Below, one piece after another: positions 1,177 through 36,963 of a DNA stretch of 64,000 nt (position 1 is the first letter of the stretch; each line of letters begins with the position of its first letter). The notes beneath the pieces are model-generated. The model was not told where the DNA came from. It did no database searches and saw only the letters and a program-made list of their open reading frames with translations. This DNA comes from Escherichia phage vB-Eco-KMB40. A program made the translations under genes and the position numbers. The DNA is taken from the sequence record OR539220.1; one strand, given 5' to 3'.

Positions 1177-2192
1177 TGTGTTGCCTCTACATATAGCTGA
1201 TTTGCATATTGAATAAGTGCTTCGCGATCAGAATCAGTGATGTCTGGAATTGCATTAATGTATTCTTCCATCAACGTCTGAAGAGATTGAACTTCAACTT
1301 CTTCACTGTCATCTGACTCGACAGAGTTATCAATCTTTGACACAACTCGTAATGAATGCACAACTTTCTCTAGTTCAGATTCGAACTTCGTCAGATTTTT
1401 GTCTACTTCAGTTACTATAACACGTACTGATAGATTTGTAAAATCTTTATAGTCAATTTTTCCTTTAAATGGATAATGAATTCTACGATGCCAGGTAGTG
1501 TTGTTTGGAATAAATTCCATTCGTTCTGTTTCTGTATCAAACATCCAGAACCCACGAGGGTCATTCTCGTCACCGGCAGTTAGTGTCCATGGTGTCCCAA
1601 TATATCTGACGTTAGCAGCCTCAGAGATAGTATGGAAGTGACCAGACCACACCTCTTTATAAGTCTTAAGGAAATCAGGTTCAAGACCGTGAGATTTCAT
1701 TCCTTTATAAAAATAAAATCCATTCAGTTCCCAGTGACCAACACAAAAAGAAGCAGATGAAGTTTTGATGTGCTCAAGAATTTCACCAGTATTTTCTTCA
1801 CACATCCAAGGAATTAAATCAATTAAACATCCGTCAAAATCTACTGTAGTAGGCTTATCATATACTTTAACATTAGGATATTTAGCCAAAAGCTCAGTAG
1901 AGGCATTTGGAGTTAAAGTATTTTTAAAGTGCATATCATGGTTTCCTACAACAGTATGTAGGGTAATACCAGCATCATCAAGCATTTGAACTATTTCACG
2001 AGCGAACTCCATAGTTTTATGCGTGATTGCTTTTCGCACATCAAAAATATCGCCGTATTGAATCCATGTAGTAATTCCATTTTTCTTAGAATATTCTATT
2101 GCTTGTTTAATTCCATCCAACTGAATGGATTGAACCCACTCATCATCGGCTTTAACGCCTAAATGCCAATCACCTAAATTTAAAATTTTCAT
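1173..2192 (-). CDS. 47: recombination exonuclease subunit gp47 (Mre11/SbcD-like phosphoesterase)
   Basis: 339 aa; calcineurin-like phosphoesterase motifs (GDWHLG, GDIFD, GNHD, GHWE); length and N-terminus as in T4 gp47. Confidence 0.9.
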   Translation of the reverse strand: MKILNLGDWHLGVKADDEWVQSIQLDGIKQAIEYSKKNGITTWIQYGDIFDVRKAITHKTMEFAREIVQMLDDAGITLHTVVGNHDMHFKNTLTPNASTELLAKYPNVKVYDKPTTVDFDGCLIDLIPWMCEENTGEILEHIKTSSASFCVGHWELNGFYFYKGMKSHGLEPDFLKTYKEVWSGHFHTISEAANVRYIGTPWTLTAGDENDPRGFWMFDTETERMEFIPNNTTWHRRIHYPFKGKIDYKDFTNLSVRVIVTEVDKNLTKFESELEKVVHSLRVVSKIDNSVESDDSEEVEVQSLQTLMEEYINAIPDITDSDREALIQYANQLYVEATQ

Positions 2193-5990: not shown

Positions 5991-6009
5991 AAAAAGGGCC
6001 GAAGCCCTT
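5991..6009 (-). terminator. intrinsic terminator (AGGGC-TTCG-GCCCT hairpin plus T-run on minus strand)
   Basis: Perfect GC hairpin followed by TTTTT on the transcribed strand, just 3' of ORF 6008..6208. Confidence 0.55.
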
Positions 6010-6208
6010 AGCTAAACTTTTTGGCACCCTTCCAGCCTTCGTACATCATTGCGACTGACAATGACAAAGCTCCTTCACATGCTGCATACTTATTATTCCA
6101 GAACCAATTTAGAAAAACTTCATCCTCAATACCATTGTGTTTCATGTTCTGGAAAAATTTGGCGCGTTCTTCAGCAATTCGCTGTGATAATTTAGATTCA
6201 GGATTCAT
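6008..6208 (-). CDS. hypothetical small protein (66 aa)
   Basis: ORF track. Confidence 0.4.
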   Translation of the reverse strand: MNPESKLSQRIAEERAKFFQNMKHNGIEDEVFLNWFWNNKYAACEGALSLSVAMMYEGWKGAKKFS

Positions 6209-6425
6209 TTAAATTTTTCCAGTTACCGTTTTCATCAATAAATTTAATCCAGTCATTTACTGACCACTTGGTCGTATCGCCTTTTGGAGTAACATTTAAA
6301 GTGTATAACCCTTGTTTAAAAAGCATTCGTTTGATATTCATATTTTCCTCAGCTGTAACGATAACACTCGTTTGATTTACGTTTAGCAACTCGTTGAGAA
6401 ATATTATAATCAAAATCATCATCAA
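6198..6425 (-). CDS. hypothetical small protein (true start possibly internal ATG near 6344)
   Basis: ORF track; N-terminal part overlaps upstream ORF. Confidence 0.3.
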   Translation of the reverse strand: MMMILIIIFLNELLNVNQTSVIVTAEENMNIKRMLFKQGLYTLNVTPKGDTTKWSVNDWIKFIDENGNWKNLNES

Positions 6426-6687
6426 TGTAAACAGATTTTTTCAACTTTCTTACTTCGCCGCGTAATTGACGATTTAACTCATCTTTAACTTCTGAATCAA
6501 TACCTTTCATTCTACGCCATTTATCTGAGCGAAAAATGTTTTCAACCATATCTTTATGACTTACACCATCAGGAGCTTTACGCTTTCCGAAATAGTCATA
6601 ATCACGCACTTTTAAGTCTTTACGACGATACGTTTTACCCATGGAGTTTAATTTCCTTAGCAACTGAACTAAATACAGCACGATCAC
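6349..6687 (-). CDS. hypothetical basic protein (true start possibly near 6642)
   Basis: ORF track; Lys/Arg-rich. Confidence 0.35.
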   Translation of the reverse strand: MIVLYLVQLLRKLNSMGKTYRRKDLKVRDYDYFGKRKAPDGVSHKDMVENIFRSDKWRRMKGIDSEVKDELNRQLRGEVRKLKKSVYIDDDFDYNISQRVAKRKSNECYRYS

Positions 6688-23878: not shown

Positions 23879-24460
23879 CTAACCGAGCTTTTTAGTTAAT
23901 TCATTCCAGTGTTTTCTACACAAAGAAACATAAATTTCATCACCAATACAGATTTGATTACCTTCTTTAACTGGTGTTCCATCTTCCATTAATCGAGCTG
24001 TCATAATCGCTTTTTTACCACAATGACAAACTGCCTTTAGTTCAATAAGTTTATCTGCAATCGCCAAAAGTTCTTTAGAACCTTCAAACAATTTTCCAGC
24101 GAAATCAGTCCTTAATCCATAAGCCATAACAGGAACATTATATGTATCAACAATTCGACTTAATTGATGCACCTGTTCAGTTTTTAAAAACTGAGCTTCA
24201 TCTACAAATACGCAATGAATATCTTTTTGTGCTTCAGCCCATTTATAGAACTCGAAAATATCCATATCATCTGTAATAATATTCGCTTCCTGTTTAATTC
24301 CAATGCGAGAAACAACTTCACAGACAGAATCGCGAGTATCAATAGCAGGCTTAAGAACTAATACACTCATTCCACGTTCTTTATAATTATGTGCAGCAGT
24401 CAAAAGAGAAGCAGATTTTCCAGCATTCATTGCTGCATAAGTAAAAATTAAACTCGCCAT
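23879..24460 (-). CDS. tk: thymidine kinase
   Basis: 193 aa; P-loop AAMNAGKS; C-terminal Cys pairs (CHCG...CRKHW) typical of type II thymidine kinase. Confidence 0.9.
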   Translation of the reverse strand: MASLIFTYAAMNAGKSASLLTAAHNYKERGMSVLVLKPAIDTRDSVCEVVSRIGIKQEANIITDDMDIFEFYKWAEAQKDIHCVFVDEAQFLKTEQVHQLSRIVDTYNVPVMAYGLRTDFAGKLFEGSKELLAIADKLIELKAVCHCGKKAIMTARLMEDGTPVKEGNQICIGDEIYVSLCRKHWNELTKKLG

Positions 24461-25034: not shown

Positions 25035-25237
25035 GTAACCTTTAAGCAGTATTCTTCTACATGTTGTTTACGACCTTTCTTATCAATAAAGGTATATTCA
25101 ACGAATGTTCCAATGTAGTCTTTATCTACATCATGTGGACTATTAATTGGACATTTAGTACGGCAAATGCGTTCCCATTGACGAATAATTTCCACTTTGT
25201 TTTTAGGATCAAACGGATGTGGGTAATGTACTTTCAT
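25025..25237 (-). CDS. hypothetical small protein (70 aa)
   Basis: ORF track. Confidence 0.4.
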   Translation of the reverse strand: MKVHYPHPFDPKNKVEIIRQWERICRTKCPINSPHDVDKDYIGTFVEYTFIDKKGRKQHVEEYCLKVTWL

Positions 25238-25688
25238 AATCCACCACTATTAAATCAATATCAGGAGTAAACATGTCGATTAATTTAGAAACCTTATCCC
25301 AATCGCCGCCAGCAATACCACAACCTATGCGTGGAATGTAAATTACTGGTTTAAACAAAAGGGTTTCTGCCTGTAGATTTAATTCTATCATGCAGTTTAC
25401 TAAAGCACCATAATCAAGATTAGGACCTGGTTCGTATTGCGTATACAGGTTATAGCATACACCAAAACCATTAGGTTTATGTTTAAAAACAATAGACATA
25501 TCGCCTAATTTATCACGAGAACCGTACTCAGTAGTGGTTTTATCTATTTCTAAAATTTTGGGATAGGCTCTTGCTAATTGACCAGCTACACCTGAACCCA
25601 TAGTATGAAAACAATTGCACCCGTGCGCAATAATATTACCTTGAAGAAATAGGGCGACAATATCGCCCTTGATATATTTTACAATCAT
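25209..25688 (-). CDS. macro-domain protein (putative ADP-ribose binding/hydrolase), 159 aa
   Basis: Motifs GDIVAL...NIIAHGCNC...GSGVAGQL and PRIGCGIAGGDWDKV fit macro-domain Gly-rich loops. Confidence 0.5.
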   Translation of the reverse strand: MIVKYIKGDIVALFLQGNIIAHGCNCFHTMGSGVAGQLARAYPKILEIDKTTTEYGSRDKLGDMSIVFKHKPNGFGVCYNLYTQYEPGPNLDYGALVNCMIELNLQAETLLFKPVIYIPRIGCGIAGGDWDKVSKLIDMFTPDIDLIVVDYESTLPTSV

Positions 25689-26026
25689 CTAGTACTCAAT
25701 CCTCGATTATAAGAATCTACCAAACGGTCAACCATTGAATGACAAGCGGCTTTATCTTTCTCCTCCGCAACTGAACATTCTAAGGTATTCCACTTTTTAG
25801 CATATCGTTTTAACAATGTATCATTTTTGTATCTGCTTGATTTATCTCTTTCTCCGTCTTTATATGCATATATTAATTTCTGTGCAAATTCAGCTTGGCA
25901 TGCTTTATTTTTCCCGCAATAATCCGCTGCAGTACGGTTTACATACTCTCTAATTTCAGTATATGATGTATCTGCTAACGCAGAAAATGAAATTAATCCT
26001 ATACATAAAACCAAAATTTTAGTCAT
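25685..26026 (-). CDS. secreted/periplasmic protein (113 aa) with signal peptide
   Basis: N-terminal MTKILVLCIGLISFSALA; four Cys. Confidence 0.45.
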   Translation of the reverse strand: MTKILVLCIGLISFSALADTSYTEIREYVNRTAADYCGKNKACQAEFAQKLIYAYKDGERDKSSRYKNDTLLKRYAKKWNTLECSVAEEKDKAACHSMVDRLVDSYNRGLSTR

Positions 26027-26564
26027 TTACTATTTCCAAAAGTTTATTATTTTTAAGGTAATTAGCCTTTTCTAGGACTTCAGAAGCATATTTAGAACCT
26101 GCTTTAACATTCCATCCCGAATTATAAGAGGATATTGCTTTTCTTATATCGCCCTTATGTATATTTAACCAATAAGAAAGTTCAATGTACGCCCAGGAAG
26201 CTGAATTGGACCGTTTATTCAACATTCTTTTTATTTCAGCATCGGTCATATTATAACCAAGTTCCTTAACTCTCGCTCGCATAGTAGGCAAATAATTTTG
26301 GAACATTCCATAAGCGTGATGCTTTGGTTTAGATTTTAAATTAACTCCGCCAGAGCTTTCTTGCCATAAAATGGCTGCCATTATATGACCTAATCCGCTC
26401 TTGTGGATATTTTTATGTGTTTTATATTTTCCATCCTTAGAAAATTGTTCCCCGAATTGATACGCGTAACGCATGTTATCGAGTTGGACATTACTGAAAG
26501 TATGCTCGGAGCTATGTGCCATCATTGAAATGGCCAATAGACCAGCGAGTAGTGCTTTTCTCAT
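26019..26564 (-). CDS. secreted lytic-transglycosylase-like protein (181 aa)
   Basis: Signal peptide MRKALLAGLLAISMMAHS; SLT-like motifs ILWQESSGG and AYGMFQ. Confidence 0.45.
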   Translation of the reverse strand: MRKALLAGLLAISMMAHSSEHTFSNVQLDNMRYAYQFGEQFSKDGKYKTHKNIHKSGLGHIMAAILWQESSGGVNLKSKPKHHAYGMFQNYLPTMRARVKELGYNMTDAEIKRMLNKRSNSASWAYIELSYWLNIHKGDIRKAISSYNSGWNVKAGSKYASEVLEKANYLKNNKLLEIVND

Positions 26565-26571
26565 GCTTACC

Positions 26572-27033
26572 TCATTGAGTTTTAATTACTGCTTTAGAAG
26601 CCTTTCCTGGTAAACGACGACTGTTGATAATTGCCATCCTACATTGAAGTGACGGGTCTTTGAACTTCTCATTAGGTTTACAAACTGTAAATCCAAGCCA
26701 AAGATTTCCATCTGTAATTTCTAAACGTCCAGGACGATATTCAACTCCATCAATAAAATCCTCATCAATGTCAGGACGCGGAGGCATACTCAGGAATTCA
26801 TTAACTTCTAAAACATGGTCTTTTATTTTATGGAATAATTCAAAAACATATGTCTCATCAATCTCCCGTTGAATTGCACGATCAAGAAGATGTTGAGAAT
26901 ATTTTAGATGAAACGATGAGACCCCTGCTGCTTTTGATGCCTCACGAATCTCATTGTTAATTTGACGAAACTCCGACTCAAAGTGACGACGAAGCTTATT
27001 TCGACGGATAAAAACTTCTGTATTGATAGTCAT
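26572..27033 (-). CDS. regB: sequence-specific endoribonuclease RegB
   Basis: 153 aa, same length as T4 RegB; position between vs-type ORFs and tk; own early promoter. Confidence 0.7.
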   Translation of the reverse strand: MTINTEVFIRRNKLRRHFESEFRQINNEIREASKAAGVSSFHLKYSQHLLDRAIQREIDETYVFELFHKIKDHVLEVNEFLSMPPRPDIDEDFIDGVEYRPGRLEITDGNLWLGFTVCKPNEKFKDPSLQCRMAIINSRRLPGKASKAVIKTQ

Positions 27034-27060: not shown

Positions 27061-27090
27061 ATTATACCACAGTCAAGAGGAAAAGTAAAC
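27061..27090 (-). promoter_or_regulatory. T4-type early promoter (-35 GTTTACT, -10 TATAAT)
   Basis: Minus strand GTTTACT-N17-TATAAT upstream of regB. Confidence 0.6.
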
Positions 27091-35942: not shown

Positions 35943-36018
35943 TGGTCGAGGCAGTAGGGATCGAACCTACGACCCAGGACTTAGAAGGTCCTTGCTCTTC
36001 CTTCTGAGCTATGCCCCG
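35943..36018 (-). tRNA. tRNA-Arg (anticodon UCU)
   Basis: Manual fold: 7-bp acceptor, D arm GCTC/GAGC, anticodon loop CTTCTAA, T loop TTCGATC, CCA encoded. Confidence 0.85.
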
Positions 36019-36022
36019 TAAT

Positions 36023-36098
36023 TGGGGTGACCGATGGGAGTCGAACCCATGACTACGAGAATCACAATCTCGAGTTCTACCAACTGAACTACGGCCAC
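36023..36098 (-). tRNA. tRNA-His (anticodon GUG)
   Basis: Manual fold: canonical arms, anticodon loop TTGTGAT, discriminator C, CCA encoded. Confidence 0.8.
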
Positions 36099-36212
36099 AT
36101 TAATACCTACTCCAACAATCAAGATGTCTTCACACGAAATTAAGAGAAGAGTGATCAGTTCAACCCCTATAATCGCGTCAAGTAGATATTAATGTGACAG
36201 TTGTCACAAATT

Positions 36213-36287
36213 TGGCGGACGTGATAGGATTCGAACCTATAACCAATCGCTTAACAGGCGATCGCTCTGCCATTGAGCTACACATCC
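36213..36287 (-). tRNA. tRNA-Asn (anticodon GUU)
   Basis: Manual fold: D arm GCTC/GAGC, anticodon loop CTGTTAA, T loop TTCGAAT, CCA encoded. Confidence 0.8.
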
Positions 36288-36291
36288 AAAT

Positions 36292-36378
36292 TGGTGGGGA
36301 GTGATGGAGTCGAACCACCCGAGTCGCAATGACAATGAATTTACAGTCCACACCGCTACCTCTACGGGATAACTCCCC
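36292..36378 (-). tRNA. probable tRNA-Tyr (anticodon GUA), long variable arm
   Basis: Canonical acceptor, anticodon arm (loop CTGTAAA) and T arm; 15-nt variable arm; D arm non-canonical (4 nt between acceptor and D stem). Confidence 0.6.
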
Positions 36379-36390
36379 TAATTCATAATT

Positions 36391-36465
36391 TGGTGGCCCT
36401 GGGTGGAATTGAACCACCATCTGGCGATTATGAGTCGCTTGCTTGAACCTTCCAGCTACAGGGCC
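36391..36465 (-). tRNA. tRNA with CAU anticodon (Met, or Ile if C34 is modified as in T4 tRNA-Ile)
   Basis: Manual fold: anticodon loop CTCATAA, T stem GGTGG/CCACC, CCA encoded. Confidence 0.75.
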
Positions 36466-36466
36466 T

Positions 36467-36542
36467 TGGTGCTGATTGACGGAATCGAACCGCCGACATC
36501 CTCATTACAAGTGAGGTGCTCTACCTACTGAGCTAAATCAGC
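36467..36542 (-). tRNA. tRNA-Thr (anticodon UGU)
   Basis: Manual fold: canonical cloverleaf, anticodon loop CTTGTAA, CCA encoded. Confidence 0.85.
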
Positions 36543-36547
36543 AAAAC

Positions 36548-36637
36548 TGGCGGAGGCGATAGGATTTGAACCTATGAGTCGCCGGAGCGACTGCCGGTTT
36601 TCAAGACCGGTGCATTAAACCACTCTGCCACGCCTCC
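36548..36637 (-). tRNA. tRNA-Ser (anticodon UGA), long variable arm
   Basis: Manual fold: anticodon stem CCGGT/ACCGG, loop CTTGAAA, 18-nt variable arm, CCA encoded. Confidence 0.85.
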
Positions 36638-36639
36638 AG

Positions 36640-36713
36640 TCTCCGCGGCAGGATTTGAACCTACGACATTCTGCTCCCAAAGCAGACGCTCTACCAAACT
36701 GAGCTACACGGAG
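36640..36713 (-). tRNA. tRNA-Pro (anticodon UGG)
   Basis: Manual fold: anticodon loop TTTGGGA, T loop TTCAAAT; CCA not encoded. Confidence 0.85.
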
Positions 36714-36723
36714 TAAATTAAAT

Positions 36724-36797
<74 letters not shown>

Positions 36798-36802
36798 AAA
36801 TT

Positions 36803-36889
36803 TGGTGCGAGAAGTGGGACTCGAACCCACAAGGAAATCATTCCGCAGCATTTTAAGTGCTGTGCCTTTACCAATTTGACCATTCTCGC
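36803..36889 (-). tRNA. tRNA-Leu (anticodon UAA), long variable arm
   Basis: Sequence GCGAGAATGGTCAAATTGGTAAAGGCACAGCACTTAAAATGCTGCGG...GTGGGTTCGAGTCCCACTTCTCGCACCA matches T4 tRNA-Leu as recalled. Confidence 0.9.
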
Positions 36890-36890
36890 G

Positions 36891-36963
36891 CTGGGAATAA
36901 AGGACTCGAACCTTTGCATCTAGCAGTCAAAGTGCTATGCCTTACCAACTTGGCTAATTCCCA
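36891..36963 (-). tRNA. tRNA-Gln (anticodon UUG)
   Basis: Manual fold: anticodon loop CTTTGAC, T arm AAAGG-TTCGAGT-CCTTT; CCA not encoded; first tRNA of the cluster. Confidence 0.85.

Follow-up and report, generated by a model that had tools for sequence, protein, structure and literature searches.

What does the small gene between vs and tk.3 encode in T4-like phages, and on which ADP-ribose adduct would its product act? The question is raised here by a window of 64,000 nucleotides of Escherichia phage vB-Eco-KMB40 (OR539220.1), the whole stretch that was analyzed. A sequence-only reading had described an open reading frame for 159 residues in it as a macro domain that could reverse host ADP-ribosylation defences or degrade ADP-ribose-derived immune signals. 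The open reading frames and their PHROG matches place the gene in a tightly packed, head-to-tail block on the minus strand, with the order regB-vs.1-vs-tk.4-tk.3-tk.2/tk.1 slots-tk. The features of this block are:

26572..27033, minus strand: regB (RegB), PHROG match
26019..26564, minus strand: vs.1, PHROG match
25685..26026, minus strand: vs, PHROG match
25685..25688, minus strand: ATGA overlap of the vs stop codon and the tk.4 start codon, read from the sequence
25209..25688, minus strand: tk.4/adfM orthologue, a 159-residue single-domain macrodomain protein with an ATG start, from the ORF listing
25209..25237, minus strand: 29-nucleotide overlap of the tk.4 3' end with the start of tk.3, from the ORFs and the DNA comparison with T4
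23879..24460, minus strand: tk (thymidine kinase), PHROG match

Three small ORFs between tk.4 and tk fill the positions of tk.3, tk.2 and tk.1 in T4; of these, the middle ORF matches a PHROG other than that of its T4 counterpart. Many Tequatrovirus genomes, e.g. teqhal and PhiZZ23, match the 1.3 kb around tk.4 at 99% identity, and the window is Tequatrovirus. In such 99%-identical phages the GenBank labels of the gene are 'hypothetical protein', 'phosphatase' and 'macro domain protein'. The ATGA shared by the vs stop and tk.4 start codons indicates translational coupling of the two genes. The junction at the other end of tk.4 is a simple ATGA overlap in T4, whereas here tk.4 and tk.3 overlap by 29 nucleotides, as is also annotated in RefSeq NC_054901. 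A 13-nucleotide indel relative to T4 at the 3' end accounts both for this overlap and for a C-terminal tail unlike that of T4 Tk.4. The tail, ESTLPTSV, is modelled at low confidence, with a pLDDT of 66 for the last 10-residue block of the AlphaFold2 model.

A promoter scan found 17 sites where 19.4 were expected, and neither a promoter nor a MotA box could be assigned to tk.4; the best minus-strand site is positioned upstream of regB (27089..27061). The Rfam scan returned only tRNAs, with nothing close to tk.4. An 8-bp GC-rich hairpin at 25651..25669, within tk.4 codons 7-13, was flagged as terminator-like and then rejected, as its folding energy is no better than that of shuffled sequences (z=-1.5). 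The hairpin has the same sequence in T4, is located just upstream of the point at which the two alleles diverge, and is probably incidental to the coding sequence.

The window protein is 57% identical to T4 Tk.4 over 155 residues (E=9e-70). The two proteins occupy the same slot (vs/tk.4/tk.3) with collinear flanks, and are of the same length class and the same PHROG. They agree at every one of the first 13 residues and at 33 of the initial 38. All active-site residues (His22, Asn25, Gln84, Gly122, Gly124 and Trp130) are common to both. The phosphate-binding loop differs, reading GCGIAGGDW in the window protein and GAGIGKGNW in T4 Tk.4. This comparison identifies the ORF as the allele of T4 tk.4 (adfM) carried by this Tequatrovirus. 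Homologues of the tk.4 type are found in about 2,770 phage records from many genera.

The proposed membership in the macro-domain family is confirmed. The 159-residue product matches Pfam Macro (PF01661) with 33.1 bits (E=5.9e-8; the gathering threshold is 22 bits), aligned over positions 2-117 of the 118-position profile, and it matches PHROG 335 with E=1.9e-71. PF01661 is also matched individually by 50 of 52 homologues. The nearest solved structures by sequence are BT1257 from Bacteroides, Poa1p from yeast, SCO6735 from Streptomyces, the DarG macrodomains and human TARG1. A family profile of the 52 homologues lifts the PDB matches to E-values of 6.6e-20 through 7e-10, the best of them being BT1257 (6.6e-20).

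An AlphaFold2 model calculated from the alignment of the 52 homologues has a pLDDT of 94.6 and a pTM of 0.89. Together with the Foldseek matches and the alignment, it gives, with high confidence, a three-layer α/β/α macro fold with two glycine-rich ligand loops. Foldseek against the PDB ranks TARG1 at the top (2.5e-10), then Poa1p, BT1257 and DarG (M. tuberculosis, 4.8e-8), with viral macrodomains after these. There are 166 PDB matches at E<=0.001, and the best 50 of the 166 are macrodomains or designed hydrolases, the latter resembling the TTHA0132 macrodomain in sequence. The predicted fold and the profile matches thus agree that the tk.4 product is a genuine macro domain, and its membership can be considered settled.

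Neither this assignment nor a role against DarTG2 is new. The tk.4 orthologues were assigned to the A1pp/macro family in 2006 (PMC1524935), and the role was described for the T4 orthologue in a 2025 preprint (bioRxiv 10.1101/2025.11.20.689424). DarTG stops phages via ADP-ribosylation of phage DNA, and T4-like phages layer AdfA, AdfN and AdfM against it. T4 lacking both adfA and adfN stays resistant to DarTG2, and a further factor was therefore expected (PMC11825919). When a T4 transposon library was examined on a DarTG2 host by HIDEN-SEQ, tk.4 was the single significant hit, and a clean tk.4 knockout sensitised T4 to DarTG2; the gene was named adfM, for anti-DarT factor Macrodomain (bioRxiv 10.1101/2025.11.20.689424). 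On plain K-12, T4 does not need tk.4 (same preprint). The genetics of the T4 orthologue thus bears out the suggestion that the protein reverses a host ADP-ribosylation defence.

The active site was compared residue by residue. The window protein, T4 Tk.4, BT1257, SCO6735, TARG1 and PhiKZ gp104 were aligned to the family profile with hmmalign. The alignment is considered valid because all published residue numbers were reproduced: His24, Val25, Asn27, Lys34, Gln85, Gly87, Lys89, Gly126 and Gly128 of SCO6735, Lys84 and Asp125 of TARG1, and Asn23 of PhiKZ gp104. The gp104 row is unreliable around the catalytic strand, where its Lys78 is positioned two columns away from Gln84. A MAFFT alignment of six sequences was dropped, as it misplaced the central β-strand and was at odds with the HMMER profile alignments. 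The elements of the site are:

25575..25637, minus strand: first glycine-rich (substrate-binding) loop, residues 18-38, from the profile alignment
25437..25439, minus strand: codon CAA of Gln84, from the profile alignments
25290..25334, minus strand: second glycine-rich (phosphate-binding) loop PRIGCGIAGGDWDKV, residues 119-133, from the profile alignment

Both motifs quoted in the sequence-only reading are thus present in the translation, NIIAHGCNC...GSGVAGQL at residues 18-38 and the second at residues 119-133, and in the alignment the two coincide with the loops that bind substrate and phosphate in solved macrodomains. In the first loop, His22, Asn25 and Gly31/Gly33 correspond to His24, Asn27 and Gly33/Gly35 of SCO6735, and His22, Gly23, Asn25, Cys26 and Gly33 are invariant across the 52 homologues. 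In the second loop, Gly122 and Gly124 correspond to Gly126 and Gly128 of SCO6735, Ala126 takes the position of TARG1 Asp125, and the invariant residues are Pro119, Gly122, Gly124 and Trp130. Gln84, also invariant in the 52 homologues, aligns with Gln85 of SCO6735, Gln82 of BT1257 and Lys84 of TARG1. The Gln85 position of SCO6735 has been equated with the catalytic Lys80 of DarG (PMC9411070), which makes Gln84 the counterpart of that lysine by way of the published equivalence, DarG itself being outside the present alignment.

SCO6735 of Streptomyces coelicolor and BT1257 constitute the Gln-type subclass of ALC1-like macrodomains. The window protein carries the residues that characterize this type, namely Gln84, the locking Asn25, the histidine and the loop glycines Gly122 and Gly124, which on this alignment places its active site with the glutamine type of SCO6735 and BT1257 and apart from DarG and TARG1, where the residue is a lysine. 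On DNA, thymidine-linked ADP-ribose is a substrate of SCO6735, for which a water-mediated cleavage has been put forward; the Q85A mutant is inactive and N27S nearly so (PMC9411070). The genes for SCO6735 and BT1257 are orphans that are not paired with DarT, as is tk.4 in the window. BT1257 is about 26% identical to the window protein (Foldseek). The comparison with TARG1 (OARD1) is mixed. The loop leading from the catalytic position to the next helix is equal in length in the two proteins, whereas the TARG1 catalytic dyad Lys84/Asp125 is replaced by Gln84/Ala126.

The DarG macrodomain (PDB 5M3I, 5M31 and 7OMU) has the same fold and belongs to the same class as the window protein (TM about 0.72-0.75), and the two presumably share their substrate and biological effect. 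The differences are nevertheless considerable. The window protein scores 27.8 bits on the NCBIfam DarG model NF048014, for which the equivalog cut-off is 250, and 27.5 bits on the PADLOC model PDLC02990, and its match spans no more than positions 3-144 of the 329 in the DarG model. With 159 residues, it has no counterpart of the C-terminal domain through which DarG binds DarT. Among the window ORFs and their PHROG matches, no darT toxin gene adjoins tk.4, the neighbours being vs and tk.3. The T4-type protein would therefore work like DarG without being a member of the DarG family.

A second stand-alone phage macrodomain that counters DarTG2 is gp104 of PhiKZ, the chimallivirus 'AdfM' (PMC13309987). 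Gp104 strips DarT2-made ADP-ribose from DNA in vitro, and its N23A mutant is impaired (PMC13309987); Asn23 is the conserved asparagine that corresponds to Asn25 of the window protein. The two proteins are otherwise only marginally similar (27% identity over 33 residues, E=0.001), and gp104 is taken up into a phage nucleus, a structure that T4-like phages lack. On the DarG models gp104 scores 133-138 bits (132.9 on the PADLOC model), compared to 30-36 bits for T4 Tk.4. This gap in score, together with the near impossibility of aligning the pair, indicates that the two 'AdfM' proteins represent convergent recruitment of different macrodomain lineages. The name was given to the two lineages independently, and its sharing could mislead annotation.

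The same strategy is followed by AdfN (T4 30.3), likewise an orphan hydrolase of antitoxin type that is carried by a phage and clears DNA of DarT marks (PMC11825919). AdfN, however, has the unrelated NADAR fold, acts only on the guanosine-linked ADP-ribose made by DarT1, and does not counter DarTG2 (PMC11825919).

On these comparisons the window protein is probably a stand-alone macrodomain ADP-ribosyl glycohydrolase that acts against DarT2 marks, encoded by an allele of T4 adfM. Its most likely function, by analogy, is to free the thymidines of phage DNA from ADP-ribose, and the 57%-identical allele is expected to have the same substrate and phenotype as its relatives. The protein would be made from the tightly packed regB-vs.1-vs-tk.4-tk.3-tk block. 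The DarT2 toxin of the host would ADP-ribosylate thymidines of single-stranded phage DNA and so block replication. The tk.4 product would hold the ADP-ribose between its two glycine-rich loops and hydrolyse the thymine-ribose bond, restoring replicable DNA; it would thus be an 'orphan antitoxin' doing the job of DarG. The chemistry is probably similar to that of SCO6735 rather than to that of DarG, with Gln84, kept in place by Asn25, orienting the distal ribose for a water-mediated cleavage.

Several observations count against this reading. In the preprint the enzymology of the T4-type protein was deduced from its resemblance to M. tuberculosis DarG (bioRxiv 10.1101/2025.11.20.689424). The scores of the window protein on the DarG models are weak. 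Identity to the tested T4 protein is only 57%, and the phosphate-binding loop is among the regions that differ. Lys34 and Lys89, which position DNA in SCO6735, are replaced by Ser32 and Gly88. The mobile loop, which is extended in the SCO6735/BT1257 type and is about 5 residues longer there than in DarG and TARG1, has the TARG1 length in the window protein and is about 6 residues shorter than that of BT1257. Finally, the protein is acidic, with a pI of 5.25 compared to 9.5 for SCO6735. The acidity is no objection to activity, however, because the PhiKZ enzyme, which is active in biochemical assays, is just as acidic (pI 5.05).

The alternatives differ mainly in the substrate that they assign to the site. 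The label 'phosphatase', attached both to PHROG 335 and to the RefSeq entry, would make the protein a small-molecule housekeeping enzyme, either an ADP-ribose-1''-phosphate phosphatase like Poa1p or an O-acetyl-ADP-ribose deacetylase. Poa1p is indeed among the best matches in both sequence and fold, its His23 is kept as His22, and the H-x-C-N-C motif is common to both. The label, however, goes back to A1pp, the former name of the domain, and is not based on an assay. Of the other two residues that were probed in the Poa1p structures besides His23, Phe152 is replaced by Ala126 and Ser30 by Thr29 in the alignment, which leaves the central part of Poa1p outside the residue-level comparison. Moreover, the phenotype of the T4 orthologue is specific to DarTG2, and the gene is dispensable on plain K-12. 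No phage or E. coli pathway is known to produce Appr-1''-p in relevant amounts, and a housekeeping role of this kind appears quite unlikely. An activity on marks other than those left by DarT2 on DNA, such as ADP-ribosylated RNA or proteins modified by other host toxins, or the marks of the phage's own Alt, ModA and ModB, is unlikely as well. The ends of nucleic acids are also substrates for macrodomains of the TARG1 class, and the divergent alleles described below could reflect different substrates. Alt and Mod modify arginine, a linkage that macrodomains are not known to cleave. SCO6735 acts on ADP-ribosylated PARP1 too (PMC9411070), so that the substrates of the class extend beyond DNA, but DarTG2 resistance is the only known genetic phenotype of the orthologue.

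Catalysis itself could be secondary if DarT2 were neutralized mainly by stoichiometric binding of the toxin. Forms of SCO6735, DarG and TARG1 that have lost catalysis still inhibit DarT in vitro, the effect being strongest for SCO6735 (PMC9411070), and the fast turnover of tk.4 alleles is as expected from an arms race between proteins. The absence of the DarG C-terminal DarT-binding domain argues in the opposite direction, as does the invariance of the catalytic-site residues in the 52 homologues, which speaks for selection on chemistry. Binding as the main mode of action is thus very unlikely, and stoichiometric inhibition of DarT is possible as a secondary effect. The suggestion that the protein breaks down ADP-ribose-derived immune messengers, for example the gcADPR or His-ADPR of Thoeris, found no support. 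Macro domains in general bind ADP-ribose derivatives, and one of the 52 homologues marginally matches ThsA_Macro (E=0.002). The closest characterized relatives, however, are glycohydrolases of ADP-ribosylated macromolecules, and the T4 screen paper makes no mention of Thoeris (bioRxiv 10.1101/2025.11.20.689424), so that this role can be regarded as highly improbable.

The DNA comparison with T4 (locus L001) shows that most of tk.4 has diverged as a unit within well-conserved surroundings:

25238..25633, minus strand: divergent allele cassette, 58% identical to T4 DNA

Upstream, vs is 96% identical to its T4 counterpart. The first 55 nucleotides of tk.4 are 89% identical and the remaining body of the gene 58%. 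Downstream, tk.3 is 92% identical overall and about 99% in its 3' two-thirds. The breakpoints relative to T4 are near tk.4 codon 14 and within the initial third of tk.3. Of the records in the phage collection, 318 have an allele that matches tk.4 of the window with 90% identity or more, 224 have the T4 allele (at least 90%), and 159 have a third allele that is 80-90% identical to that of T4. At least three tk.4 allele groups therefore appear to be present in otherwise near-identical Tequatrovirus backbones, a pattern that fits recombinational exchange of a counter-defence gene. A more speculative view, which we consider doubtful, is that the alleles are arms-race specificity variants, exchanged by recombination and directed at different DarT2 families or at other nucleic-acid ADP-ribosyltransferases; they would combine a lysine-free chemistry of glutamine and water with a DNA-binding surface unlike that of the characterized thymidine ADP-ribose hydrolases.

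Recognition of the gene as adfM corrects the uninformative labels 'phosphatase' and 'hypothetical protein' in hundreds of database genomes, and the identity of the adfM allele predicts that this phage would be resistant to DarTG2. Two modest points are new: the T4-type AdfM is of the Gln type, nearer to SCO6735 and BT1257 than to DarG, and tk.4 behaves as a swapped allele cassette. Both can guide the biochemistry of AdfM or the choice of phages against DarTG-carrying strains, and they leave the overall picture unchanged.

The closest chromosomal homologue in bacteria, found in Pelagimonas phthalicica (6001..6459 of the locus examined, L002), is 40% identical to the window protein. It is an orphan among unrelated genes, and no DarT-like gene is present next to it in that locus. 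A capture of tk.4 straight from a darTG operon is consequently unsupported. Another homologue, 43% identical, is encoded in a large phage genome (a 110-kb contig of Logan ERR3585466). The gene is located about 4 kb downstream of one with an Acb5 (anti-CBASS) Pfam domain, the two being at 1541..1888 and 6001..6447 of locus L004, and its surroundings may be an anti-defence neighbourhood.

Two genes of the block have unexpected features of their own. The products of vs (25685..26026) and vs.1 (26019..26564) have N-termini resembling Sec signal peptides, MTKILVLCIGLISFSALA/D and MRKALLAGLLAISMMAHS. The PHROG matches of vs.1 resemble lytic transglycosylases or endolysins. Export of the vs product would be odd for a 'valyl-tRNA synthetase modifier'. 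In the HIDEN-SEQ preprint vs was the most depleted gene in minimal medium (bioRxiv 10.1101/2025.11.20.689424).

Further along the window, a cluster of 11 tRNA genes is located on the minus strand at 35943..36963, comprising Arg, His, Asn, Tyr, Met-CAT, Thr, Ser, Pro, Gly, Leu and Gln. The tRNA-Tyr gene (36292..36378) is an ARAGORN call that scores below the Rfam gathering threshold.
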